From positions 1-64,000 of the IMG/VR virus record IMGVR_UViG_2974611271_000001: a stretch of 64,000 nucleotides of DNA; one strand, written 5' to 3'. The notes beneath the pieces were generated by a model. The model saw nothing but the letters and a program-made list of their open reading frames with translations, did not search any database and was not told the origin of the DNA. This DNA is from a virus. Lineage: Duplodnaviria; Caudoviricetes. Position numbers and translations under genes: made by a program. Positions 10,176 to 64,000 of this stretch are shown here, in pieces (within the stretch, counting starts at the first letter, position 1; each line of letters opens with the position of its first letter).

Positions 10176-10549
10176 GACATGCGCTCCTCGAGCACGTCAC
10201 GCAGCGGGCGACCGACGAGGGCGAGCAGCTGCGGATCGAGGCGCAACGCGGGCGTCTGATCGAAGTACAGCGCAAGGTCGTCGAGCGCTTTGAACGCGGC
10301 CTCCGCGTCGGTTTGCGGTGCGTCACCCATGCGCTGCAGCAAGAGCTCGGCTGCGAGTTCGTAGACGGGCAGCGTGCGCCCGTTCGCGAAGTGCTCGTTG
10401 ATCGTCGATCCAGCTACGCCCATGGCGCGGCCGATCTCGGCGCAGTTGTCGCCCATGCGTTCGCGCAGACGCGCGAGGTGTTTCGGCTCCGTCCAGTTGT
10501 AGGTCGGCGGCGACTTGATCTTCTTCTTCGTGGTTGTCGTGTCGGTCAT
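10172..10549 (-). CDS. XRE/Cro-like HTH DNA-binding protein
   Basis: LARLRERMG.NCAEIGRAMGVAGSTINEH; AAGGAGG SD. Confidence 0.65.
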   Translation of the reverse strand: MTDTTTTKKKIKSPPTYNWTEPKHLARLRERMGDNCAEIGRAMGVAGSTINEHFANGRTLPVYELAAELLLQRMGDAPQTDAEAAFKALDDLALYFDQTPALRLDPQLLALVGRPLRDVLEERMS

Positions 10550-10560
10550 GGAATCCTCCT

Positions 10561-10827
10561 TTAGCGACCAATGATGCGGGCCGCGCGAGCGGCCTCGGGG
10601 GTGCCGATACCGACACCGCGGTCGAGCATTTGCCCGACGCGCGCTTTCAGTTCAGCGTTGTAGATGCGACGCACAGCGACGAAGCGCTCGAGGGCGTTGT
10701 CGTCGAGGCGCATCGCACCCGATTGAATCTTGCGCGACGTGTCGATCTGCGCTTGCACGGTCGCCTTCAGCCGCTCGTTGTCGAGCGATGCGGCGAGCTT
10801 GCGGGTTGCTTCGAGCGTGGATTGCAT
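10561..10827 (-). CDS. hypothetical early-type protein
   Basis: CAACAACGGAGA leader and own promoter. Confidence 0.6.
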   Translation of the reverse strand: MQSTLEATRKLAASLDNERLKATVQAQIDTSRKIQSGAMRLDDNALERFVAVRRIYNAELKARVGQMLDRGVGIGTPEAARAARIIGR

Positions 10828-10850
10828 GTCATTTCTCCGTTGTTGCGTGA

Positions 10851-10880
10851 ACGATGCGCACTTAACGCGCGCACCGTCAA
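10851..10880 (-). promoter_or_regulatory. sigma70-like promoter TTGACG-N18-CATCGT
   Basis: Same hexamers and spacing as the 11994-12023 copy. Confidence 0.55.
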
Positions 10881-10887
10881 GTGGTGA

Positions 10888-11199
10888 TTAAGGTTGGATC
10901 GAGATCGGATCGTCGTAGCCCTCGGCGAGGTAAGAATCGACGAAACGTCCTGGTTGCATGGTCGACACATAAACGCGACGACCGCGAGCGCGCACGTCGT
11001 CAGCGGCGAGTGCGACGAGACCGGCGATGCGGTCGCCGTGACATTGCGCGACGCGATACGACCGGAGCGGTGTGATCGTCACCGGCCTGTCGCAGCACGC
11101 GGTCACGACGAGGTTGGTGTTCTGGTAGATGTCGGCATTCGCGAACGCGTTGCCGCGCACCTCCATCGACGAAGCATTGCACCATGGACAGCGACTCAT
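10888..11199 (-). CDS. hypothetical Zn-finger-like protein
   Basis: CPWC...ACC motifs; start at MSRCPWC. Confidence 0.5.
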   Translation of the reverse strand: MSRCPWCNASSMEVRGNAFANADIYQNTNLVVTACCDRPVTITPLRSYRVAQCHGDRIAGLVALAADDVRARGRRVYVSTMQPGRFVDSYLAEGYDDPISIQP

Positions 11200-11330
11200 G
11201 ACATCACCCCCGCGAAGATGAACAGGAGGAAGATCGTCGCGAACAGGCAGACGGCGCCGATCACGTCGCCGACGAACTCCCACGGGTGGTCGCGGATGTC
11301 GTCGATCACGTTCAGAAGAATGTCGATCAT
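11196..11330 (-). CDS. small membrane peptide (44 aa)
   Basis: MIDILLNV...VIGAVCLFAIFLLFIFAG; AAGGAG SD. Confidence 0.55.
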   Translation of the reverse strand: MIDILLNVIDDIRDHPWEFVGDVIGAVCLFATIFLLFIFAGVMS

Positions 11331-47885: not shown

Positions 47886-48245
47886 ATGCCCAAAGTCTAC
47901 ATCGTCAACGAACCAGACGAGTCCCGTGTGCCTGCAGGCCACACATCGTGGGACACGTCGCCCGCCGCGTATTTCGGGGATCTCGTCTACGTGTTCACCG
48001 CCGACAACCCGCCGCCTGTGCGCGACCGGGATGCGGCATTCGAGCGCGCTCACGAAGTCCTCAGCGAGGCGACGTCCGACGACTTCCTCGTCTGGGCCGG
48101 AGGTGATCCTTTCGGCATGGTGATCGCTGCAGCAGTGCTGGCCGACTACACGGACGGTCAGTTCACCTATCTGATGTGGGACCGCATGGCGCGAACGTAT
48201 GCGCCGGTGCCTGTCGATATCTTCAACAACGGAGAACCCGAATGA
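47886..48245 (+). CDS. conserved hypothetical protein
   Basis: KVYIV.E...D.SPA..FG...DFL...GDP...L.WDR. Confidence 0.7.
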   Translation: MPKVYIVNEPDESRVPAGHTSWDTSPAAYFGDLVYVFTADNPPPVRDRDAAFERAHEVLSEATSDDFLVWAGGDPFGMVIAAAVLADYTDGQFTYLMWDRMARTYAPVPVDIFNNGEPE

Positions 48246-48787
48246 CCGACGAACTGATGGACGAACTCGAGGCCGACGGCGCAAAGCCCTCGACCGATCT
48301 CGCGGACGTGAAAGCGCTCGCGCACAAGCAACTCGAACTCGAGGCGAAGGTCGCCCGGGCCGAGCAGGCGTTGAAGGACGCGCAGAAAGAGCTGATGCAG
48401 ATCTCTGACCGCGACCTGCCCGCTGCGCTCAAAGCCGCGGGCATCCCGTCCTTCACGCTCGATAACGGGATGAAGGTCGCTTACAAGGAAGACCTGAAGG
48501 TATCCGTCCCGAAAAAGAACCTTCCGGCCGTCCTCAAGCACATGCGCGAGTGGGGCTATGAGGCGAACATCTCGACGACGATGACCATCGACCTCGGCAA
48601 AGGCAACGACAACGCCGCGAAGGCACTCGCACAGCAGGCGTCCGAGATGGGCCTCACCGCGAACGTGGATGAGACAATCGCCACGGGAACGGTGAAGAAG
48701 GTCCTGAACCAGCGCATCGACGAAGGCAAGTCCGACGACTTGTCGCTGTTCGGCGCGTTCCCATTCACCCGAGCAACGGTGAAATAA
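48242..48787 (+). CDS. conserved replication-module protein
   Basis: Coiled coil, LP......GI.SFTLDNG; precedes SSB-like gene. Confidence 0.7.
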   Translation: MTDELMDELEADGAKPSTDLADVKALAHKQLELEAKVARAEQALKDAQKELMQISDRDLPAALKAAGIPSFTLDNGMKVAYKEDLKVSVPKKNLPAVLKHMREWGYEANISTTMTIDLGKGNDNAAKALAQQASEMGLTANVDETIATGTVKKVLNQRIDEGKSDDLSLFGAFPFTRATVK

Positions 48788-48812
48788 ACCAGCCAGTAGA
48801 GGAGACCTTACT

Positions 48813-51541: not shown

Positions 51542-53042
51542 GTCGACACTCATCCTGGGCGGTCCCGGATGCGGCAAGACGACCGCGCTGCTCAAGATCG
51601 TTGAGCAGGCGTTCTCCCGCGGCGTCGAACCGGAACGGATCGCCTTTGTCGCTTTCACACGAAAGGCGGCGCAAGAGGCGAGGGAGCGCATGAGCGAGAA
51701 GTTTGGGATCGAACCCGACCAAATCCCATACTTTCGGACTCTGCACTCCTTCGCTTTCTCATTCATCGACGCGCAGCGGTCACAGATCCTCGACGAGGAC
51801 AAGCTGCGCGAGTATGCGAAGGCGGAGGGCTTGCAGCTCTCCGCATCGTTCATCGACGACTTCAACCAGGCCGAACTCACTCCCCACACGCCCGACGAGC
51901 AAGCGCTTGCTGCCGCTGCTCTGTCGCGTCTGATGTGCGTCCCGTTCGACGACCTCGTGGTGAAGTACGACCTCGACCACGGGCACGCCACGAAGGTCGT
52001 CGCGGACTATGAGGAGTTCAAAGAGGACGCATCGCTGCTCGACTTCACCGACATGATCGAGCAGTTCGACGGTGCTGACCTGCCTTCGTTCGACTTGCTC
52101 ATCGTTGACGAGGCGCAGGACCTTTCGCGACTGCAATGGCGCATGGTCGAGCGCATGATTGAGCACTCGAAGGACGTGTACTTCGCAGGCGACGACGACC
52201 AGGCGATCTACGAATGGGCAGGCGCCGACGTGCCCTACTTCCTCACGCTCGATGCTGACCGCGAGGTCCTTCCCGTTTCATATCGGCTGAAACGAAACAT
52301 CTTCGACGCGTGCCAGAAGATGATTGCGCACTGCGACCACCGCTACGAAAAGGGCTGGCAACCGCACGCCGACGGCGGCGAAGTCGATCACGTCGCCTCG
52401 TTGCACGACCTCGACTTCAGCGAAGGCACCTGGTTCCTTCTCGCACGCACCAACACGCTAGTGCAGGCGTTCACGAAGCACATGCGCGACCAGGGGTGGG
52501 CGTATATCAGCCCGACGGTCGAAGGCATGAAGCCCTCGACGTCCGCGCCCGCGGTGCAAGCCGTCCTGGTGTTCGAAAACCTGAAGCGCGGTCGCACGTT
52601 CAAGGCCGATCAGGTGCAGAACATGTGGAAGCACGTTCGACCGAAACTGCGACCCGAAGCGATGCCAGCATTCCAGCTGGATCAGGACTACGGGATCGAC
52701 GACGTTGCAGCGACGGGGCTCTCGTTCGACATGAACTGGATGGAAGCGCTCGCAATGTCGTCGCCGATGCAGGCCTATATCCGGGCTATGCGCGCACGCG
52801 GGGAATCGCTTATCAAGAAGCCGCGCATCACCGTCTCGACGTTTCACGGCGTCAAAGGCGGCGAGGCAGACAACGTCGTGATCTGGCAGAAGCTGACATC
52901 GCGAACCTATCAACGGTGGATCGAGCATGATGACCAAGAAGTGCGCGCCATGTTCACGGCAATGTCTCGTGCGAAGGAACGGCTCATTTTTCTCGATGCG
53001 CCCACGCGCATCTCATACGGCATAGAAAGGTTCTTGCTATGA
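51528..53042 (+). CDS. UvrD/Rep-like SF1A helicase
   Basis: GGPGCGKT, AFTRKAA, VDEAQD, GDDDQAIY, STFHGVKGGEA, SRAK. Confidence 0.9.
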   Translation: MGRLRSTLILGGPGCGKTTALLKIVEQAFSRGVEPERIAFVAFTRKAAQEARERMSEKFGIEPDQIPYFRTLHSFAFSFIDAQRSQILDEDKLREYAKAEGLQLSASFIDDFNQAELTPHTPDEQALAAAALSRLMCVPFDDLVVKYDLDHGHATKVVADYEEFKEDASLLDFTDMIEQFDGADLPSFDLLIVDEAQDLSRLQWRMVERMIEHSKDVYFAGDDDQAIYEWAGADVPYFLTLDADREVLPVSYRLKRNIFDACQKMIAHCDHRYEKGWQPHADGGEVDHVASLHDLDFSEGTWFLLARTNTLVQAFTKHMRDQGWAYISPTVEGMKPSTSAPAVQAVLVFENLKRGRTFKADQVQNMWKHVRPKLRPEAMPAFQLDQDYGIDDVAATGLSFDMNWMEALAMSSPMQAYIRAMRARGESLIKKPRITVSTFHGVKGGEADNVVIWQKLTSRTYQRWIEHDDQEVRAMFTAMSRAKERLIFLDAPTRISYGIERFLL

Positions 53043-53641
53043 CATCAACGGTACTGCTCGACTGCGACGACGTTCTCCTGAACTGGCTCGACGGCTTCCG
53101 AAAATACGTCGCCGCGAAGCGTGGCGTCGAAATCTGCGAACGCGGCCCGACCGATTGGGTCATGGACGAGTGGCTTGGCACTGAGCCCCACGAAACCATC
53201 CAACTGATCGAGGAGTTCAACGCGTCGCCCGCGTTCGGCAAACTCGAACCCGTCGAAGGTGCGCAGGACGCCATCCGCATGATGGGCGTGATGAGCGACT
53301 ACCACGTGCGGATGCACGTGATCACCTCATGCTCGTCCGATTGGGCGACCGTCGAGATGCGCAAGACCAACCTGCGCGAGCACTACGGGTTCAACACGTT
53401 CGATTCCGTTCACTGCCTCGACCTCGGGCAGTCGAAAGAGTCGATCCTGCACGCGTTCGACGCACCGTGCTTGTGGATCGAAGACAACATCAAGAACGCG
53501 CTTCTGGGCGTGAAAGCCGGGCACCGCGTCGTCATGCGTCAGACGTCGCACAACGTCAGACACCGAGCGGACGCTGAGTCTGCCGGCATCGTCTGGATCG
53601 AACACTGGAACGAACTCAAACTCGGAGACTACTTCAAATGA
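53039..53641 (+). CDS. HAD-family 5'(3')-deoxyribonucleotidase-like
   Basis: LLDCDDVL, ITS, K, WIEDN. Confidence 0.8.
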   Translation: MTSTVLLDCDDVLLNWLDGFRKYVAAKRGVEICERGPTDWVMDEWLGTEPHETIQLIEEFNASPAFGKLEPVEGAQDAIRMMGVMSDYHVRMHVITSCSSDWATVEMRKTNLREHYGFNTFDSVHCLDLGQSKESILHAFDAPCLWIEDNIKNALLGVKAGHRVVMRQTSHNVRHRADAESAGIVWIEHWNELKLGDYFK

Positions 53642-54081
53642 AATACCGCTCGACCAAACTCTTCAAGGACCTCGGCCCTGTCGCATATCGTCAGTGGCGC
53701 GCAGATTCGCACTGCAACCTGATCCACGGCTACTCGCTGTCCTTCAAGTTCACCTTCGAGTCCGACGACCTCGACGCGCGCAACTGGGTCGTCGACTTTG
53801 GCGGTCTCAAGGAAGTGAAGGCGATGCTCGAGTCGCAGTTCGATCACACGCTCCTCGTTGCGTCCGACGATCCGCACCTCGACTGGTACAACGAGGCGCA
53901 CGAGCGCGGCATCGCGAAGGTGATGGAGTTCCCGGCGCTCGGGTGCGAAGCGATTGCCGACATGGTCTTCGAATGGATGGCCGACTGGCTCGCGACGGAC
54001 GGCGGCTACGGCGACCGCGTTCGCCTCGTGTCCGTAGAGGTCATGGAACACGAGAAGAATTCAGCGATCAGGATGGCCTGA
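53638..54081 (+). CDS. queD: 6-carboxy-5,6,7,8-tetrahydropterin synthase
   Basis: SHCNLIHGY, VVDFG.LK, FDH, E.EKNSA. Confidence 0.9.
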   Translation: MKYRSTKLFKDLGPVAYRQWRADSHCNLIHGYSLSFKFTFESDDLDARNWVVDFGGLKEVKAMLESQFDHTLLVASDDPHLDWYNEAHERGIAKVMEFPALGCEAIADMVFEWMADWLATDGGYGDRVRLVSVEVMEHEKNSAIRMA

Positions 54082-54105
54082 CCTCGACCCACCAGGTCGT
54101 CCTAG

Positions 54106-54147
54106 CGAGGTGCGCAGCCCGAAAAGGTTGCGCACCTCGTCCTTTTG
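54106..54147 (+). terminator. intrinsic terminator after queD
   Basis: CGAGGTGCGCAGCC-CGAAAA-GGTTGCGCACCTCG then TCCTTTT. Confidence 0.6.
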
Positions 54148-54153
54148 TGCGAA

Positions 54154-54186
54154 AAGCGACTCATCAACAGCGACTCAACGGAGACA
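54154..54186 (+). promoter_or_regulatory. 33-bp conserved leader AAGCGACTCATCAACAGCGACTCAACGGAGACA
   Basis: Identical to reverse complement of 25170-25202. Confidence 0.7.
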
Positions 54187-54191
54187 CGAAA

Positions 54192-54353
54192 ATGAACATC
54201 GAGCGCATCAACGCACGTTTCATCAAAAACCACGGCGAGATCGTGCGCACCTGGGACGAGACCCAGCGCGACTCGCAGCGCAAGGTCACCTACGCCGTCA
54301 CGATGTGCGAACATGCCGACGGCTTCAAACGCGTCTTGACCGTCGCTGAATGA
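54192..54353 (+). CDS. small early-type protein (53 aa)
   Basis: MNIERINARF... directly after the leader. Confidence 0.6.
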   Translation: MNIERINARFIKNHGEIVRTWDETQRDSQRKVTYAVTMCEHADGFKRVLTVAE

Positions 54354-55343: not shown

Positions 55344-56192
55344 ATGACATCGAAAGCACTCGTCGTCCTGTCAGGCGGACAGGATTCCACGACATGCCTC
55401 TACTGGGCCCTGCAGCAGGGCTACGATGAGGTCCACGCCATCACCTTCGACTACAATCAGCGCCATCGTGCCGAGATCGACGCAGCCGTGAAGATCGCGA
55501 AGGACGCCGGCGTGAAGACGCACCAGGTGATCGAGATCGGTCCGATCCTGGGCGGCACGTCGCCGCTCGTGTCCGACAACGAACTCGAGCAGTATCCCGA
55601 TGGTGACCTGCCCGGCGGTCTCGAAAAGACCTTCGTGCCGATGCGCAACCAGACCTTCCTCACGCTCGCAGCGAACCGCGCCTACGTGCTCGGCTGTCGC
55701 AACCTGATCACGGGCGTTTGTCAGGAAGACTTCGGCGGCTACCCCGACTGTCGGCAGGTGTTCATCGACGCGCTCGAGAAGGCCTGCAACCTGGGCACAT
55801 TCACGGGTGAGGATGGCGCGCTCGGCGCGTTGAAGATCCACACCCCGCTGATGAACCTCACGAAGGCCGAAAGCGTGCATCTCGCGCGCCGCCTGCCCGG
55901 GTGCATGGAGGCGCTCGCGTACTCCCACACGGCCTACGACGGTCAGTATCCGCCGACCGGCTCCGATCACGCGACGAAGTTGCGCGAACAGGGCTTCGAG
56001 GCGGCAGGCGTCGCGGACCCGATCTGGTTGCGTGCCGCGTGCGAAGGCCTGGGCGAGCTGCCCGCGTCGTCGAACTACGACATCGCGCGCGAAGTCACGG
56101 CGAAGGGTCCCAAGGGCAAGAAGAAGCACTGGACGCCTGACGAGTTCGTCTCGCTCGTTCAGGAAGCCGAGTTCGACGCGGTGCCCGCCTGA
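55344..56192 (+). CDS. queC: 7-cyano-7-deazaguanine synthase
   Basis: SGGQDSTT, FDYNQRH..E, TFVPMRN, GYPDCR..F, TPLM.LTK. Confidence 0.93.
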   Translation: MTSKALVVLSGGQDSTTCLYWALQQGYDEVHAITFDYNQRHRAEIDAAVKIAKDAGVKTHQVIEIGPILGGTSPLVSDNELEQYPDGDLPGGLEKTFVPMRNQTFLTLAANRAYVLGCRNLITGVCQEDFGGYPDCRQVFIDALEKACNLGTFTGEDGALGALKIHTPLMNLTKAESVHLARRLPGCMEALAYSHTAYDGQYPPTGSDHATKLREQGFEAAGVADPIWLRAACEGLGELPASSNYDIAREVTAKGPKGKKKHWTPDEFVSLVQEAEFDAVPA

Positions 56193-56755
56193 TGGACACG
56201 AAGCACGACATCATCCGCGCGATGCTGCGCGAGATCGGTGAGGATGAACGCGAAGGGCTGGCTGAAACGCCAGCCCGGGTCGTCAAGGCGTGGAACACCT
56301 GGTTCGGCGGATACGGGCGCGACCCGGTCGAAGTCCTGAAGGTGTTCGAAGACGGCGCCGAAGGCGTGGACGAGATGGTCATCGAAGTCGACATCCCGTT
56401 CTACACGCACTGCGAGCACCACATGGCGCCTTTCTTCGGCCTCGCGTCCGTCGCGTATGTCCCGAACGGGAAAGTGCTCGGCCTGTCGAAGATGAACCGC
56501 CTCGTCGATCTGTTCGCGCGTCGCCTGCAGGTTCAGGAGCGTCTCACGAACCAGATCGCCGACGCGCTCGAGGAAAACCTGAAACCGAAAGGCGTGGGCG
56601 TCCTGCTGCGTGCGCGCCACATGTGCGTCGAGTCGCGCGGTGTTCAGCATCGCGGATGCTCGACCACGACGAGCGCGCTGCGAGGCGCGATCAAAGACGA
56701 ACCGGACGCGCGGATGGAATTCCTGACGCTCGCCAAGACGACAACGCCAATCTGA
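56192..56755 (+). CDS. folE: GTP cyclohydrolase I
   Basis: REGL.ETP.RV, CEHH..PF, GLSK..R, RRLQVQERLT.QIA, HMC...RG. Confidence 0.95.
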   Translation: MDTKHDIIRAMLREIGEDEREGLAETPARVVKAWNTWFGGYGRDPVEVLKVFEDGAEGVDEMVIEVDIPFYTHCEHHMAPFFGLASVAYVPNGKVLGLSKMNRLVDLFARRLQVQERLTNQIADALEENLKPKGVGVLLRARHMCVESRGVQHRGCSTTTSALRGAIKDEPDARMEFLTLAKTTTPI

Positions 56756-56763
56756 GGACCAAC

Positions 56764-57348
56764 ATGACCACGGAATACTCGAAACCCGACGACCTCGAGA
56801 AGCTGGGCTCCGGCTCCGCTGATCAACGTGAGTGGCCCAAGCTGCCTCCCACGCCCGAAGTGCTCGAGCGCTTCCCGAACCCGATGAAGTTCTCGCGTCA
56901 CCCGTCGCCCAATCCCATCCAGCTCGGCGGCTACGACGACCCCTTCGAGTTCACTTCGCTGTGTCCGAAGACCGGTCAGCCCGATCATGCGCGCATCGTC
57001 GTCAACTACCAGCCGAAGGACTGGTGCGTTGAGTCGAAGTCGTGGAAGATCTACCTGCAATCGTTCCGGCTGCATGGCGAATTCCACGAGTCTTGCATCC
57101 AGCGCATCAAGGACGACCTGGTCGACCTGCTCGACCCGCTGTGGATCGAGGTGACCGGCGAGTTCACGCCGCGCGGCGGCATCTCGATCAACCCGACTGC
57201 GCGCTGGGAATACCCGATGAAGGGCGTCACGTTCGAACAGATGACCGACACGCGCTCGCCGCAAGATCGCCTGAACGAGATGCTGGCGAATGGCTCGCAC
57301 GTCGGCGAGCGTATCGGTGAAGGCGAAATGCCTGATCCGACCATGTGA
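56764..57348 (+). CDS. queF: NADPH-dependent preQ0 reductase (type I)
   Basis: EFTSLCPKTGQPD, QueF motif ESKSWKIYL, FHESC, PRGGI. Confidence 0.92.
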   Translation: MTTEYSKPDDLEKLGSGSADQREWPKLPPTPEVLERFPNPMKFSRHPSPNPIQLGGYDDPFEFTSLCPKTGQPDHARIVVNYQPKDWCVESKSWKIYLQSFRLHGEFHESCIQRIKDDLVDLLDPLWIEVTGEFTPRGGISINPTARWEYPMKGVTFEQMTDTRSPQDRLNEMLANGSHVGERIGEGEMPDPTM

Positions 57349-57430: not shown

Positions 57431-57628
57431 ATGGCCCACAACTACCTCACCGACGCGCAGTCGCGCATCGTGCAGCAGATCAGCAACGACGTGACCGTGC
57501 CGGAAAAGATCCGCAACGTCGTCGTCGCTGCGATGCGTCAGCGCAATGCCAAACTTCGTGGCTCGTTCGACGATTGCCGGGAAGCGAACGATGCGCTGGT
57601 CAGCGCTGTTGATGCGCTGGAGGTCTGA
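57431..57628 (+). CDS. small early-type protein
   Basis: CAACGGAGA leader; MAHNYLTD... Confidence 0.6.
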   Translation: MAHNYLTDAQSRIVQQISNDVTVPEKIRNVVVAAMRQRNAKLRGSFDDCREANDALVSAVDALEV

Positions 57629-57630
57629 TC

Positions 57631-58923
57631 ATGCACCTTTACATGAGCGGCACGCCGCGCAACGACCCCTACCAGACCATCGAGAATCGCCTCTGCACGC
57701 ATCGCCTTTTCTCGATGCACGCCGAGTATGAACGCCCAGTGCTGCGCTGGGTCGATGATCTGCGCAACGGCATCCTCGACGCTGAGGACTACCTGCGCGC
57801 CTACCCGCACCACCGAGACAACATCATCAAGCGCGACGCCGCGCGCCGTGAGATGCAGAAGCAGTATGGGCACAGCGAGGACTACGACATGTCCGAAGTG
57901 CTCGAGCACGTCTGCAAGACGCTCAAGGGCCGTCCATACCCGAAGGCGATCCTGCTCGACTCGGGCGCGTTCACGGCCTGGAACAAAGGCGAGACGACGA
58001 CGGTCGACGACGTGAAGCGCAAGTACACGTCCTTCATCGAGAAGGCCGGCGACATGTTCGACGAGATCTGGGGCGTCAACCTCGACGTAATCCCGGGCGA
58101 AAAAGGTCGCGACCCGACCGAAGACGAACTCAAGCGCGCGGTCGAGGTGTCGGACATCAACTTCGAGATCCTGGTCAAGGAGTTCGGGGACATCATCCTT
58201 CCCGTGTATCACCAAGGCGAAAGCCTCGACCGGCTCGACGGGTGCGTTGCGCAGGTCGATGGCAAATCGAACTACATCTGCGTCTCGCCTCGAAACGACC
58301 TGCCGGAAGGCAAGCGCGTCGATTGGTCGCGCGACGTTCACTTCGAGATCAAGCGTCGCTACTCGCACATCATGACGCACGGCCTCGCGACGACGGGCAA
58401 TCGCATGGTTCGCACCGTGCCGTGGTACTCGGGCGACTCCGCCGCATGGGTGCAGCACGGCGGCTTCGGCATGATCGACATCTTCCACGACGAAGATCAC
58501 TCGTTCGGTCGCAAAGCGCAGCCGCACTACATGAACTACTTCGTGTCGCTCGACAAAGTCGAGTTCGACCTCGACGGCTCCTTCGTGTCGAAGACCGGTG
58601 AGCGTTTAAACGCGCGGTCGCTCGGCTGTCATGAGGATATGAAGATGGGCGAGGTTGCCGAGGTCTTGATGCAGCATGTGTCCGACATCGACGCGCTGCC
58701 CATGGTTGGCGGTCACATTCGCGACGAGTCCAAGCACTTCAATCGGCTGGGACCTGAGCACCGTGCGTTCATCAAGCAACGCGTCGAACGCCTCGGTTTC
58801 CCGTTCGAGTCGTGCCGCTGGGATTCTCGCATCAGGAATCTGATCTGCATGGCTGAGTTCGTCGAGTTCGCTGAATGGGCGAAAGATGCGCCGAAAGACC
58901 GCGCGCAGGTGAGCCTCTTCTGA
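57631..58923 (+). CDS. dpdA: DNA-guanine transglycosylase (DpdA-like, TGT fold)
   Basis: LLDSGAFT, NLDVIPG, LPVYHQGE, HGLA, PWYSGDSAAW; next to que genes. Confidence 0.8.
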   Translation: MHLYMSGTPRNDPYQTIENRLCTHRLFSMHAEYERPVLRWVDDLRNGILDAEDYLRAYPHHRDNIIKRDAARREMQKQYGHSEDYDMSEVLEHVCKTLKGRPYPKAILLDSGAFTAWNKGETTTVDDVKRKYTSFIEKAGDMFDEIWGVNLDVIPGEKGRDPTEDELKRAVEVSDINFEILVKEFGDIILPVYHQGESLDRLDGCVAQVDGKSNYICVSPRNDLPEGKRVDWSRDVHFEIKRRYSHIMTHGLATTGNRMVRTVPWYSGDSAAWVQHGGFGMIDIFHDEDHSFGRKAQPHYMNYFVSLDKVEFDLDGSFVSKTGERLNARSLGCHEDMKMGEVAEVLMQHVSDIDALPMVGGHIRDESKHFNRLGPEHRAFIKQRVERLGFPFESCRWDSRIRNLICMAEFVEFAEWAKDAPKDRAQVSLF

Positions 58924-59234
58924 TGTTTGAGATCCTGCACTCCGCAATGCAACGCGACCAGGTGCGTTTCGTGGACGACGGCTTCTTCATGTTCGCGGAT
59001 CGGGGCGACTTCGTCACGTCGACCGCGTTCTTCGCCATGAAGCCATCCGCGGCGCACATCATGGTCGCAGACATCGAGAAGATCGCGAACGGGCGACCGA
59101 TCAGGATCAGTCTGAACAAGGCCGACGAACTCGAGGCACGCGCGCTGGAATCGTCCGGCTTTGTCGTCGTCGAGGAGAAAGGCCAGCTCAACTACTGGGT
59201 GAAGGGGGACCTGCATGCTGCTCGCGATGCGTGA
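58923..59234 (+). CDS. degenerate GNAT-fold paralogue
   Basis: Aligns by eye with next gene (VDDG/VDGG, AMKP/ATKP, ESSGF/EKKGF, GQLNYW/GRELNVW); lacks G.G motif. Confidence 0.6.
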   Translation: MFEILHSAMQRDQVRFVDDGFFMFADRGDFVTSTAFFAMKPSAAHIMVADIEKIANGRPIRISLNKADELEARALESSGFVVVEEKGQLNYWVKGDLHAARDA

Positions 59235-59550
59235 GGCCGCCGAGGCCGGACATCTCAAGATCGTCGATGGCGGGTTGCTCGAGTTCAAACCGCGCCGCGA
59301 CGGGCAACTGACGATCTACACCATTGTGGCGACGAAGCCCGGCGTCGGTTCGCAACTGTTCAAGTGGCTGCTCGACTACTGCCGCGAGCACCGCGTGCAA
59401 TTCATTCAGGCGAAGTGCCCGGTCGATCTGCCGAGCAACGCCTGGTACGAGAAAAAGGGCTTCGAACTCGCGTGCGTCGAAAAGACGAAACGCTCGGGCC
59501 GTGAGTTGAACGTGTGGCGGTATCCGCTGACACGTCGGGAGCTGTTCTGA
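59215..59550 (+). CDS. GNAT acetyltransferase
   Basis: IYTIV..KPGVGSQL (motif A), SNAWYEKKGF (motif B). Confidence 0.8.
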   Translation: MLLAMREAAEAGHLKIVDGGLLEFKPRRDGQLTIYTIVATKPGVGSQLFKWLLDYCREHRVQFIQAKCPVDLPSNAWYEKKGFELACVEKTKRSGRELNVWRYPLTRRELF

Positions 59551-60758
59551 TGGATTGGTCCGATGATCAAAAGACCGCGCTGACGCGCATCGACCAATGG
59601 TTGAAGCAGAGCGATTCTCCGCGGTTCTCTCTGGGTGGCTACGCCGGGACGGGTAAGACGACGCTCGCCAAGCACATCGCGGAGAGCCACGGCGGAGACG
59701 TGCGCTTTGCGGCGTTCACAGGCAAAGCCGCGTCCGTGTTGCGCGCGAAGGGCTGTCCAGGTGCGACGACCATCCACAAACTGATCTACCAGCCGAAAGG
59801 CGACACCAACGCTTCGCAGATCGACGAACTGCGACAACTGATCGAAAACGAATCCGCGAAACCTGAACCCGACCGCGCGAACATCGCGACATGGAAGCAC
59901 GACCTCGAACGGCTCGAGGCGGAATCCAATGCGATGTTTGAGCGCAAGGCCGAAGCCGAGATCGCGGAAGCGGACCTCGTGATCATCGACGAGTCGTCGA
60001 TGGTCGACCGACGCATGGGAAGCGACCTCGAGTCCTACGGCGTGCCGATCCTGTATCTCGGCGACCCCGGCCAGCTCCCGCCCGTCAAAGGCAAGGCGCA
60101 TCTTCGTCCCGGCGAGTACGACTACGTCCTCGAGCAGATCCATCGCCAAGCGGCGGACAGCCCGATCATCTGGCTCGCCAATCAGGTGCGCAACGGGCAC
60201 GAGATCCAGTTCGGCACGTTCGACGGCCTGGTGCGCTGCCTGCCGAAGTCGTCGTGGGACATGGATCTCGTCGTCAACGCAGATCAGGTCCTGACAGGAA
60301 CCAACGTGTCGCGGCATCGCATCACGCGGTCGATGCGCAAGCACATCGGTTTCGAGCAGCTCTATCCGCTCGCCAACGACAAACTCGTGATCCGAAAGAA
60401 CGATCACGAGAAAGCGATCCTGAACGGCGTCACGTGTCGCGCGGTGCGCGAAGGTTTCCTGCGCAACGGCATCCTTCGACTGGACATCGAGTACGACGGT
60501 CGAGTGCTCGCAGACCAGCTCTGTTGCCCGGGCTATTTCCAGGAAAACTACGGCGAGCGAACCGTCTGGAAAAAAGGCGACGGCATCACCCACGTCGACT
60601 ATGGCTACTGCATCACTGGTCACAAGTCGCAGGGCTCGCAATGGCGGCACGTCGTCGTCGCAGACGACCGGATGCGTGCCCAGGACCGCGAACAGCGCAA
60701 GCGCTGGCTCTATACCGTTATCACACGCGCAGAAGAGGAACTGACGTATTATGTCTAG
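59550..60758 (+). CDS. Dda/RecD-like SF1B helicase
   Basis: GYAGTGKTT, FTGKAA, IDESSM, GDPGQLPPV, HRQ, HKSQGSQW, YT.ITRA. Confidence 0.9.
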   Translation: MDWSDDQKTALTRIDQWLKQSDSPRFSLGGYAGTGKTTLAKHIAESHGGDVRFAAFTGKAASVLRAKGCPGATTIHKLIYQPKGDTNASQIDELRQLIENESAKPEPDRANIATWKHDLERLEAESNAMFERKAEAEIAEADLVIIDESSMVDRRMGSDLESYGVPILYLGDPGQLPPVKGKAHLRPGEYDYVLEQIHRQAADSPIIWLANQVRNGHEIQFGTFDGLVRCLPKSSWDMDLVVNADQVLTGTNVSRHRITRSMRKHIGFEQLYPLANDKLVIRKNDHEKAILNGVTCRAVREGFLRNGILRLDIEYDGRVLADQLCCPGYFQENYGERTVWKKGDGITHVDYGYCITGHKSQGSQWRHVVVADDRMRAQDREQRKRWLYTVITRAEEELTYYV

Positions 60759-61122
60759 GACTCGCGAGCAACACAACGCTTACATGCGAGAGTGGCGCAC
60801 GCGCGACCCAGTTCGTGCGTTACTGGCGTCCGCGAAGAAGTCAGCAAAAATTCGCGGAATTGAGTTCTCGCTCGTCCGAGAAGACGTCAAGATTCCTGCG
60901 CGCTGCCCAATCTTTGCAATCCCGCTGCGCCTCGGTAAAGAAGGACTTGGAGCATGTCGAGATGCGGCGCCTTCTATTGACCGAATTGACTCGAGCAAAG
61001 GATACGTTCGAGGAAATATCGTCGTGGTATCGTTCAAAGCGAACCGCATCAAGAGCAACGCCTCAGCCGACGAGGTGTTGAAAGTCGGAAGATTCTACAA
61101 GGAGCTGACAACTAATGTTTGA
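60751..61122 (+). CDS. HNH-like endonuclease (putative homing endonuclease)
   Basis: CPIF.IPL...PSIDRIDSSKGY..GN..VVS..AN..K; AT-shifted codons. Confidence 0.75.
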   Translation: MSRTREQHNAYMREWRTRDPVRALLASAKKSAKIRGIEFSLVREDVKIPARCPIFAIPLRLGKEGLGACRDAAPSIDRIDSSKGYVRGNIVVVSFKANRIKSNASADEVLKVGRFYKELTTNV

Positions 61123-61552
61123 CACCTTCCACGATCACCTGAGCCGGCAGTGCGCTGTCGGCCGCGAGAAGTTCGGCCCTGGCGAACGCACGAAAGGCGT
61201 GATGGACCACATCCGCAAGGAGTTCGACGAGATCGAAGCCGAGGAAACGCCCGACGGGCGCGCCGAGGAATGGACGGACGTCGCCATCCTGGGCCTCGAC
61301 GGTCTGTTGCGCGCCGTTCGCGAAATGCTGCGCAAGCAGCTCTCGAAGCAGGAGGTCCCGCACGGCATCAACGTCGACCGCGGGGGCAACATCCTGGGCT
61401 ATAACGGCGAGCCGACCAACGACTTCGTCGCCGCGGTCGCGTGCCGCATGATCCGCCAGAAGCAGGCGAAGAACGAATTGCGCGACTTCGGCAACTGGCG
61501 CGACAAGTCCGAAGACGTCGCAATCGAGCACACGCGAGGCATCCATGACTGA
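61115..61552 (+). CDS. DUF550 dATP/dGTP pyrophosphohydrolase (MazG-like)
   Basis: FGPG.R..G..DHIRKE..E...EW.DV.IL.LDG..R...KQ.KN..R.F..WR. Confidence 0.85.
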   Translation: MFDTFHDHLSRQCAVGREKFGPGERTKGVMDHIRKEFDEIEAEETPDGRAEEWTDVAILGLDGLLRAVREMLRKQLSKQEVPHGINVDRGGNILGYNGEPTNDFVAAVACRMIRQKQAKNELRDFGNWRDKSEDVAIEHTRGIHD

Positions 61553-63205: not shown

Positions 63206-63598
63206 ATGAACATTTTCAGCAAACTCGTGCAGGCGCTCACGGGCGACAAGACGAAGGAAGGCCCGATCCCGGGCGCGATGGGGCGCATCCTCGCGCAGCA
63301 AGGCATCTACAAGATCGGCCCGCACGTGCGCAAAGGCACGCCGGTCAATGTCCTGATGGGCTGCAAGGAAGAACTCGTGATCGTTCCCGGCTCTGATCGG
63401 CCCGCGACGCGCAAGGACGGCACGCCGATCATCGGCACCGCGAAGGGCGGGAAGAAGTATCAGGTCATGGACCAGTACGCGATCCCGAAAAAGCGCTGGA
63501 AGGCGATGCAGAACGACCAGAAGCGCAAGGCCGAGGGTCGCTGGTATTCCGGCGAGCCGCAATCGTCCATCGACGCGCGGAAAGCGAAGGCGGCCTGA
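63206..63598 (+). CDS. hypothetical basic protein
   Basis: 130-aa ORF coupled to queE. Confidence 0.6.
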   Translation: MNIFSKLVQALTGDKTKEGPIPGAMGRILAQQGIYKIGPHVRKGTPVNVLMGCKEELVIVPGSDRPATRKDGTPIIGTAKGGKKYQVMDQYAIPKKRWKAMQNDQKRKAEGRWYSGEPQSSIDARKAKAA

Positions 63599-64000
63599 TG
63601 TTCGGTCACAATGAAATCGTCGGGAAGCGTGCGTTTCCCGACGACGACAAACTCCTGGTCACTTCGATCTTCGTCACGATGCAAGGCGAAGGACCTTTCT
63701 CGGGAATGCCCGCCGTCTTCGTGCGCCTCGCGAAGTGCAATCTCGCGTGCTCGTTCTGCGACACCTACTTCGATTCCGGCGACTGGCTGACGTTCGACGA
63801 ACTGGACACGTGCATCGACGACTTGCTGTGGGATGCGTCGCCCGTCCTGGACAAGGAAGACTATGTCCTGATCATCACCGGCGGCGAACCAATGCTGCAG
63901 AAGGCGCTCGTGCCCTACCTGTACTCGCAGGATCGGAAATGGCGCCACGTGCAGATCGAATCCAACGGCATCATCGTGCAGGACATCCCGGCGGCGGTCA
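63598..64000 (+). CDS. queE: 7-carboxy-7-deazaguanine synthase (radical SAM), truncated by window end
   Basis: SIF.TMQGEGP..G.PAVFVRL..CNLACSFCDT, ITGGEP, IESNG. Confidence 0.92.
   Translation, partial: MFGHNEIVGKRAFPDDDKLLVTSIFVTMQGEGPFSGMPAVFVRLAKCNLACSFCDTYFDSGDWLTFDELDTCIDDLLWDASPVLDKEDYVLIITGGEPMLQKALVPYLYSQDRKWRHVQIESNGIIVQDIPAAV

Follow-up and report, generated by a model that had tools for sequence, protein, structure and literature searches.

The window analysed here, a stretch of 64,000 nucleotides from the virus record IMGVR_UViG_2974611271_000001 (77,874 bases; CheckV completeness 100%), carries a gene for a 7-deazaguanine DNA transglycosylase, DpdA, that runs directly into two small genes, referred to here as GNAT1 and GNAT2, the second for a protein of the GNAT acyltransferase fold and the first for a remote paralogue that probably shares this fold. 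Judging from the sequences, we lean towards the view that the DNA of this phage holds an N-acylated, probably acetylated, preQ1 base. What distinguishes preQ1 from preQ0 is an added primary aminomethyl group, which is a natural acceptor for a GNAT; for this reason, and with gp48 of phage PaMx11 as a precedent, GNAT2 is proposed to be the preQ1 N-acylase. Two features are distinctive of the window: a classical DpdA accompanied by the complete pathway to preQ1, and this in a group of phages that has cultured members, and a pair of GNATs of which one is predicted to be active while the other is degenerate.

A GNAT cassette inserted between dpdA and a helicase gene

The cassette and the genes at its two edges are arranged as follows (window coordinates):

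57631..58923, + strand: dpdA, phrog_887-type (not DpdA4) 7-deazaguanine DNA transglycosylase, 430 amino acids (phrog_887 'queuine tRNA-ribosyltransferase', E = 1.1e-72)
58923..59234, + strand: GNAT1, degenerate paralogue with a probable GNAT fold, 103 amino acids, proposed non-catalytic partner (hhalign to the GNAT2 family; Atlas model)
59215..59550, + strand: GNAT2, minimal GNAT acyltransferase, 111 amino acids, proposed preQ1/dPreQ1 N-acyltransferase (structure model, Foldseek, signature columns, family neighbourhood)
59550..60758, + strand: Dda/RecD-like helicase, downstream edge of the cassette (phrog_325, E = 3.8e-96)

The TGA of dpdA (58921-58923) has its last base in common with the GNAT1 ATG at 58923, an overlap between the DpdA stop and the start of two small genes that an earlier note on this DNA had already pointed out. 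A 20-nt overlap joins the reading frames of GNAT1 and GNAT2, and the GNAT2 TGA and the helicase ATG (59550) again have one base in common. Together, GNAT1 and GNAT2 make up a 627-bp cassette, the GC content of which at third codon positions (GC3, 0.81-0.82) is the same as that of the neighbouring genes. A search of the phage collection with the cassette DNA returned no match. By tblastn, the window DpdA matched genes for DpdA or tRNA-guanine transglycosylase (TGT) in 68 phage records, including 9g, Cellulophaga phage phiSM and Pseudomonas phages annotated with DpdA.

The nearest named relatives, Dinoroseobacter phage R26L and Pseudanabaena phage Pan1, are both filed as Nanhaivirus. They have the gene order of the window and DpdA proteins 68-72% identical to the window DpdA, with the helicase gene directly after dpdA and no GNAT cassette between the two. 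The C-termini of the transglycosylases differ as well, ending in QVSLF in the window (58897-58923), QQYLLGDL in R26L and QQYLFGGL in Pan1. Directly upstream of dpdA, Pan1 carries an extra gene, gp55 (L002, 5359-6009), annotated 'YkgJ family cysteine cluster protein', with a weak Pfam match to CxxCxxCC (E = 1.8e-03) and a strong match to phrog_16018 (E = 1.9e-38). DpdM, a validated preQ1 methyltransferase, is a YkgJ homologue of the DUF3109 family (PMC10516641). Since gp55 is of the DpdM type, methyl-dPreQ1 is predicted in Pan1 DNA. With no such gene in R26L, a DpdM-like gene in Pan1 and a GNAT pair in the window, the neighbourhood of dpdA would therefore be a variable slot for tailoring genes. 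The accessible text of the Pan1 paper treats the que genes solely as tRNA queuosine genes; in excerpts from the papers on the relatives, que genes are described as queuosine or DNA-modification genes, and no acetyltransferase is mentioned there.

Structure and conservation of GNAT2 and GNAT1

GNAT2 was modelled with confidence as a minimal GNAT fold (predicted local distance difference test (pLDDT) 92.6, from an alignment of 102 sequences), with the secondary structure elements H-E-E-E-H-E-H-E-E; typical of the GNAT fold is a mixed beta-sheet with a core of beta4-alpha3-beta5-alpha4. A Foldseek search of the PDB with this model returned 234 matches at E<=0.001 (best E = 2.7e-06), and nearly all of the top matches listed are GNATs, RimI and Ard1 among them, with TM scores ranging from 0.65 to 0.80. 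On its own, GNAT2 scores 19.4 bits against Pfam GNAT, just below the cut-off of 20.7, and 8 of 11 members of its family match GNAT models (best E = 5.2e-08). In GNATs, the pyrophosphate loop of motif A has the form Q/R-x-x-G-x-G/A, and motif B the form N...Y..GF. GNAT2 contains both KPGVGSQL (within TKPGVGS) and NAWYEKKGF (within SNAWYEKKGF). Across the 102 family sequences, the GxG, AKCP and N..WY..GF elements are at least 90% conserved, as are residues G43, G45, N75, W77, Y78, G82 and F83. The 27 alignment columns with at least 90% conservation in the GNAT2 family were taken as the family signature, and GNAT2 retains 24 of them, the deviations being H25K, L26P and L49F. A hairpin outside the CoA motifs, HLRRDGQxTI, is also highly conserved in the family. 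The C-terminus of GNAT2, RRELF (59533-59547), is disordered in the model (pLDDT <50) and is kept in the closest homologues.

GNAT1 is far more divergent. It has no match to a Pfam or phrog family, and BLASTP found no similarity between it and GNAT2; a local alignment of the two proteins has a z of 3.2, with 20 of 2000 shuffles scoring equally high. A profile-profile alignment of GNAT1 with the GNAT2 family (hhalign) gave a probability of 94% and an E value of 1.1e-07 over 94 columns. At the sequence level, these comparisons point to a paralogy that is real but remote. An Atlas model of GNAT1 (predicted TM score 0.71) matches GNAT clusters with TM scores of 0.67-0.75. Our own model of GNAT1 is weak (pLDDT 57, four sequences); its Foldseek list consists almost entirely of GNATs, at E = 6e-03 or weaker, and the best match of this low-confidence model is AcrVA5, a mini-GNAT of 95 amino acids (E = 5.9e-03). 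GNAT1 retains only 6 of the 27 signature columns and is without G43, G45, AKCP, N75, W77 and Y78. PSAAH takes the place of PGVGS, and four GNAT1 homologues share this degenerate pattern. The count of 24 against 6 columns thus distinguishes one intact from one degenerate GNAT copy. The earlier note had described the second gene as a GNAT with intact motifs and the first as a paralogue that had lost the acetyl-CoA glycine loop; both descriptions stand, with the additions that the paralogy is a remote one and that the catalytic residues of GNAT1 have also gone.

Pairing of the two genes with the 20-nt overlap recurs in other loci of the family (L003/L106 and L107). In two GNAT2 homologues (P0072 and P0008), V(V/I)RDGFFYH comes after the GNAT2-like domain. 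Its likeness to VDDGFFMF, an N-terminal strand in GNAT1, hints that the two genes may be joined or arranged differently in some forms.

The GNAT2 family adjoins DNA transglycosylase genes

The two proteins have few close homologues: among 5.8 billion protein clusters searched, 10 were found for GNAT2, besides its own, and 3 for GNAT1, and no GNAT1 relatives were found among the viral contigs searched. The closest GNAT2 homologues (P0002-P0007) have 67-81% identity. Pattern scans provided 113 family loci (23 viral, the best 80 of 165 metagenomic, and 10 genomic). Identical GNAT proteins were merged and one locus that was too short (L025) was dropped, leaving 95, which together with the window give the 96 loci compared here. 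BLAST clustering placed one common gene downstream of the GNAT in 56 of the 96 loci. This gene is DUF6610, as all four representatives tested match PF20314 (E = 1e-36 to 8e-40). With hidden Markov models (HMMs), that for DUF6610 having been built from the same loci, and with loci merged only where the GNAT protein was identical, a DNA transglycosylase gene was identified in 81 of the 96. In 78 of these it is a DUF6610/DpdA4 gene, always downstream on the same strand, and in the other three, including the window, it is of the phrog_887 type. Fifteen loci have neither transglycosylase, and in nine of them the sequence ends no more than 633 nt after the GNAT gene. An independent Pfam search found PF20314 in 18 of the 23 viral records and in all five complete ones. 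Fusions tell the same story: 54 of 58 longer homologues are GNAT-DUF6610 fusions, and P0018 is one continuous protein comprising both domains. The scarcity of QueC and phrog_887 (1 of the 23 viral records, none of the five complete ones) had suggested a GNAT family independent of Que genes, a notion overturned by the DUF6610/DpdA4 genes directly downstream.

The DUF6610 proteins have been named DpdA4 from gp69 of Halovirus HVTV-1, the DNA of which carries preQ1 (PMC10516641), and the DUF6610 neighbour in locus L008 matches HVTV-1 gene 69 (E = 6e-19). No GNAT2 homologue was found in HVTV-1 by tblastn at E 1e-3, and unacylated dPreQ1 in this virus is consistent with its lack of a GNAT. In the excerpts consulted, no other DpdA4 virus has measured DNA. 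The possibility that HVTV-1 DpdA4 bears a fused GNAT was considered and rejected, its N-terminus being an acidic low-complexity tail. Families of preQ0/preQ1 transporters are also neighbours of the GNAT, with Vut_1/YhhQ in 15 and QueT in 9 of the 96 loci (HMMs); YhhQ, which belongs to Vut_1, is a preQ0 transporter in the words of a cited reference title.

The same linkage would be expected if GNAT2, with or without GNAT1, were an accessory or regulatory subunit of the transglycosylase that binds the base, docks the enzyme on DNA, or acetylates DpdA or a pathway protein, with the base staying dPreQ1. Tight operon linkage and frequent fusion to DUF6610 are what an obligate subunit would display, bacterial DpdA requires a partner, DpdB (PMC12839542), and the conserved HLRRDGQxTI hairpin could be a binding surface. 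However, conservation of the acetyl-CoA loop and the N..WY motif at 90% or above argues for catalysis. Moreover, HVTV-1 DNA is preQ1-modified although its DpdA4 has no GNAT, and the closely similar DpdA proteins of R26L and Pan1 also occur without any GNAT. We therefore regard a purely accessory role as rather unlikely and continue to favour an acyl-transferring GNAT2.

A tblastn search of 50,697 phage records with GNAT2 gave one weak match, in the Thermocrinis Great Boiling Spring virus (BK013347.1; L116, 3848-5025). There, an annotated acetyltransferase of 135 amino acids, in which RRKGFG and LKCP motifs occur, precedes a gene bearing the annotation 'acetyltransferase/queosine tRNA-guanine transglycosylase', so that GNAT and transglycosylase are paired in this hot-spring virus as well. 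A DUF6610/DpdA4-like stretch (33-37% identity, E = 5e-18 and 2e-16) is also embedded in gene 1 of two Mycobacterium phages, Rinkes (PQ449568.1) and Knocker (MZ150786.2), where this gene is annotated 'ParB-like nuclease domain protein'. Gene 2 of Rinkes is QueF-like. Gene 1 may represent a ParB-DpdA4 fusion with a link to preQ1.

Link to preQ1 biosynthesis

The que and dpdA region of the window is a closely packed run of plus-strand genes, which, in addition to those given above, comprises the following:

53638..54081, + strand: queD, 6-carboxytetrahydropterin synthase (Pfam PTPS, E = 3.8e-18; 85% identity to the R26L gene annotated QueD)
55344..56192, + strand: queC, preQ0 synthase, 282 amino acids (Pfam QueC, E = 8.9e-54)
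56192..56755, + strand: folE, GTP cyclohydrolase I (Pfam GTP_cyclohydroI, E = 1.2e-66)
56764..57348, + strand: queF, single-domain NADPH-type reductase converting preQ0 to preQ1 (PF14489, E = 1.1e-29)
57431..57628, + strand: small conserved open reading frame upstream of dpdA, 65 amino acids, role unassigned (no Pfam or phrog family match)
63598..63999, + strand: queE, radical SAM 7-carboxy-7-deazaguanine synthase, running past the window end (Pfam Radical_SAM, E = 1.8e-06, 28.7 bits, below the cut-off of 29.5)

The queE gene is 70-74% identical to R26L and Pan1 genes annotated QueE or radical SAM, and both phages have hypothetical genes of similar size at the position of the 65-residue reading frame. 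The QueF translation contains ESKSWKIY and SLCPKTGQPD. The NADPH motif of QueF is quoted as E(S/L)K(S/A)hK(l/Y)(Y/F/W) (PMC10516641); with its QueF domain and an ESKSWKIY that fits this motif, the window protein is, by its sequence, of the NADPH-dependent type and not QueF-L. QueC is without a fused glutamine amidotransferase. Searches of the whole 77,874-base record for an ArcS core, a formyltransferase (PF00551), CxxCxxCC (PF03692) and DUF6610 found none of them, and as far as such domains can tell, the genome thus has no other candidate tailoring enzyme of the DpdM, DpdN or ArcS type. The set of genes that the earlier note had read from the letters alone (folE, queD, queE, queC, an NADPH-type queF and a DpdA-like gene) was confirmed in position and by family matches, and so was its statement that ArcS, Gat-QueC and QueF-L are lacking.

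Genes for 7-deazaguanine biosynthesis are present in 5 of the 96 family loci, the window among them, and all five have QueF; with the same query, QueF was detected in 34 of the 50,697 phage records. In L056 the genes overlap in the order GNAT-QueC-FolE-QueF-DpdA, in L005 the order is FolE-GNAT-QueF-DpdA, and in L031 a QueF-GNAT arrangement stands at a contig end. L024 has GNAT-DpdA4, with YhhQ and QueF approximately 4.6 kb away. With respect to the pathway genes, the GNAT is found in three different places. Among the complete GNAT-DpdA4 phages, four of five are without QueF and all five without QueC, so that the base would have to come from the host. The record containing L024 (G022; 48233-48799, 52858-53088 and 53713-54264) is a complete 70-kb phage with two DUF6610 copies, one of which follows the GNAT, while the second lies in a 603-residue open frame adjoining QueF and a YhhQ-like gene.

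These arrangements also bear on the identity of the substrates. GNAT2 might use another donor (a different acyl-CoA or an aminoacyl donor) or another acceptor, or free preQ1 might be diverted from host tRNA use, with a product that does not enter DNA. The sequence does not fix the donor, and the position of the GNAT among base-synthesis genes in L005 and L056 fits action on the free base. Fusion to a transglycosylase in 54 of the 58 longer forms points instead to a DNA-bound product, and a minimal GNAT would have little room for a large donor; we consider such a scheme very improbable.

Three further genes lie close to the que cluster. An NT5C/HAD-like nucleotidase (53039-53641; E = 2.3e-04, below the cut-off) and a dATP/dGTP pyrophosphohydrolase-like gene (61115-61552; PF04447, E = 4.9e-09) flank it. 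Between the latter and the helicase gene is a gene of 123 amino acids (60751-61122, + strand) with a GC content of 0.53 and a GC3 of 0.565, compared with a GC3 of about 0.8 in its neighbours, and it is absent from this position in R26L and Pan1. It resembles a recent insertion of the homing-endonuclease type; its HNH label comes from sequence reading only, with no Pfam match.

Proposed mechanism and the evidence against it

According to our proposal, DpdA would exchange guanine in the phage DNA for preQ1, and GNAT2 would acylate the aminomethyl nitrogen of this base, in the simplest case by acetylation with acetyl-CoA. Its substrate could be free preQ1, immediately ahead of insertion, or the dPreQ1 that the DNA already contains, and the product would be a 7-(acylaminomethyl)-7-deazaguanine in DNA. 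GNAT1 would be a catalytically dead, co-translated paralogue that most likely pairs with GNAT2 as a scaffold, and translational coupling would keep it at levels matching those of GNAT2. The analysis itself shows what the genes are, that GNAT2 has a GNAT fold, that GNAT1 is degenerate, that the cassette is an insertion and that the family is linked to DNA transglycosylases; the heterodimer, the sequence of the reactions and the identities of donor and acceptor are inferred. A broader reading of the sequences, which we put forward more tentatively, is that the GNAT family, beside or fused to DpdA4 in dozens of uncultured phages, marks viral genomes in which 7-deazaguanine bases are N-acylated, a class of modification that would be widespread, that the active/dead pair may be obligate in the lineage of the window, and that the three related phages could form a series with dPreQ1, methyl-dPreQ1 and acyl-dPreQ1.

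Several points weigh against acylation of preQ1 by GNAT2. Linkage and fusion fit an accessory subunit equally well as a tailoring role. The DUF6610 HMM was derived from the very loci that it counts, and related phages inflate the locus counts because merging was limited to identical GNAT proteins. Three loci that could be assessed (L006, L013 and L022) have no recognisable transglycosylase, and a fourth (L081) has only a 78-residue fragment. GNAT2 itself sits on a long branch, and its partner in the window is a phrog_887-type DpdA and not DpdA4. In a tree of the 96 GNATs calculated by a quick method (L025 left out), 62 of the 93 inner branches are open and the Que-linked members are scattered on long branches; with such a tree, independent recruitment to queF operons cannot be demonstrated. 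No nucleoside data for the window phage or its genus were found in the available portions of the papers on its relatives. Lastly, the closest GNAT1+GNAT2 pairs, with GNAT2 proteins 69-73% identical to that of the window, are found in a Rhodobacter sp. and an Albidovulum metagenome-assembled genome, on islands with an integrase or a DNA methylase, and neither PF20314 nor phrog_887 has a match in these two Rhodobacterales genomes. This negative is a weak one, as the phrog_887 control had no match in any of the control genomes and there is no figure for how complete the two genomes are.

Some neighbours of the GNAT, namely the genes of 240 amino acids that follow it in L013 and L006 and other neighbours in L022 and L107, were considered as divergent DpdA proteins, and neither hhalign against the DUF6610 alignment nor Pfam returned anything. 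The hhalign test is insensitive, since it also missed the window's own DpdA. L006 also carries, approximately 2 kb downstream, a TET-associated glycosyltransferase (10381-11247; PF20691, E = 2.5e-40), which belongs to a different DNA hypermodification system.

The Rhodobacterales pairs have a bearing on another explanation, according to which the cassette is mobile and serves anti-defence or host takeover: its mini-GNAT would acetylate a host protein, and it would have landed beside dpdA by chance. The pair does occur as a two-gene unit in these two genomes without a detectable DpdA, adjoining an integrase and a DNA methylase, and it is missing from R26L and Pan1. AcrVA5, which acetylates Cas12a, has the same mini-GNAT format and is the top Foldseek match of the GNAT1 model, a further point against our proposal, albeit one that carries little weight because that model is poor. 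On the other hand, GNAT2 keeps 24 of the 27 signature residues of a family tied to transglycosylases, the cassette fits exactly into the junction of dpdA and the helicase gene, with stop and start bases in common at both ends, and the GC3 of the cassette is fully host-like. We consider this explanation unlikely, and give low weight to a toxin-antitoxin function of the pair.

Weighing these points, we retain the acylation of preQ1 as the favoured reading. GNAT2 is tied to 7-deazaguanine DNA modification much more strongly than could be seen by the earlier note, which had proposed that a GNAT heterodimer acylates the preQ1 aminomethyl group; the nearest pairs, with no detectable DpdA, count partly against that proposal. 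The note had named GNAT homologues independent of queF and dpdA as evidence that would speak against it: in the family, 81 of the 96 loci also encode a DNA transglycosylase, but the nearest GNAT1+GNAT2 pairs do answer to that description, being in two genomes where no DpdA or DUF6610 gene was found.

Relation to known systems

Eight 7-deazaguanine derivatives are known in DNA (PMC10516641), and none of those named in the excerpts of that paper is acylated. In the literature library searched, no paper was found that connects a phage acetyltransferase with DpdA or dPreQ1. The closest systems are DpdM and DpdN with respect to role, PaMx11 gp48 with respect to fold and chemistry, and the GNAT-DpdA4 operons with respect to homology.

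DpdN is a predicted N-formyltransferase resembling PurN (PMC10516641). Like DpdM and DpdN, GNAT2 is an extra enzyme beside dpdA in a queF-positive cluster, and it is proposed to act on the aminomethyl nitrogen of preQ1 as they do. The likeness is one of role only, since the window enzyme has a GNAT fold, is predicted to transfer an acyl group and is accompanied by a degenerate paralogue. PaMx11 gp48 is likewise a GNAT; this N-acetyltransferase of thymidine hypermodification adds an acetyl to the aminomethyl group when given oligonucleotides with 5-aminomethyl-2'-deoxyuridine (PMC8989533). The proposed reaction of GNAT2 would parallel this, with a phage GNAT acetylating the primary aminomethyl group of a major-groove base as the last tailoring step. 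However, the substituent would be on C7 of a 7-deazapurine in the window and is on C5 of a pyrimidine in PaMx11, and no similarity to gp48 was detected, the one match of GNAT2 in the tblastn search of 50,697 phage records not being PaMx11.

The mini-GNAT and DpdA4 operons and fusions of uncultured phages contain GNATs 40-50% identical to GNAT2, which likewise abuts a transglycosylase gene. The window differs from them in that its GNAT is downstream of a phrog_887-type DpdA, not upstream of or fused to DUF6610, and in that the phage makes its own preQ1 and has a second, degenerate GNAT. In mycothiol synthase MshD, two GNAT domains, only one of them catalytic, are present in one chain. The window similarly combines an active and a degenerate GNAT, but as two separate minimal proteins that are predicted to pair.

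A comparative genomics study of BREX-related systems from 2026 (PMC12839542) describes modules of a GNAT and a TGT, occasionally fused, and suggests acyl and 7-deazaguanine derivatives as self-markers. As in the window, the modules of these BREX-related capture (BRC) systems have a GNAT that is proposed on genomic grounds to mark DNA. They differ, as far as their description in the excerpted text goes, in belonging to bacterial defence, with HerA/FtsK, PglZ and STAND proteins, and in having preQ0 as the proposed base, with no link to queF discussed there. The earlier note had called the acylated base undescribed. For phages this still applies, as no paper on acylated phage dPreQ1 was found, whereas marking by acyl and 7-deazaguanine derivatives through a GNAT and a TGT has already been put forward for bacterial defence.

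Significance

The kind of system described here, 7-deazaguanine hypermodification of DNA, is known, and the predicted acyl tailoring step is its new element. If the prediction holds, acetamidomethyl-7-deazaguanine would be a new natural DNA base. On acylation, the positive charge contributed to the major groove by dPreQ1 would be lost, and restriction enzymes and modification-dependent defence nucleases should therefore see the DNA differently. The window offers a useful test case, as its close named relatives infect culturable hosts and differ at exactly this slot. Beyond this phage, a function would be assigned to the GNAT family, and many DUF6610/DpdA4 genes of uncultured phages would gain a chemical context.

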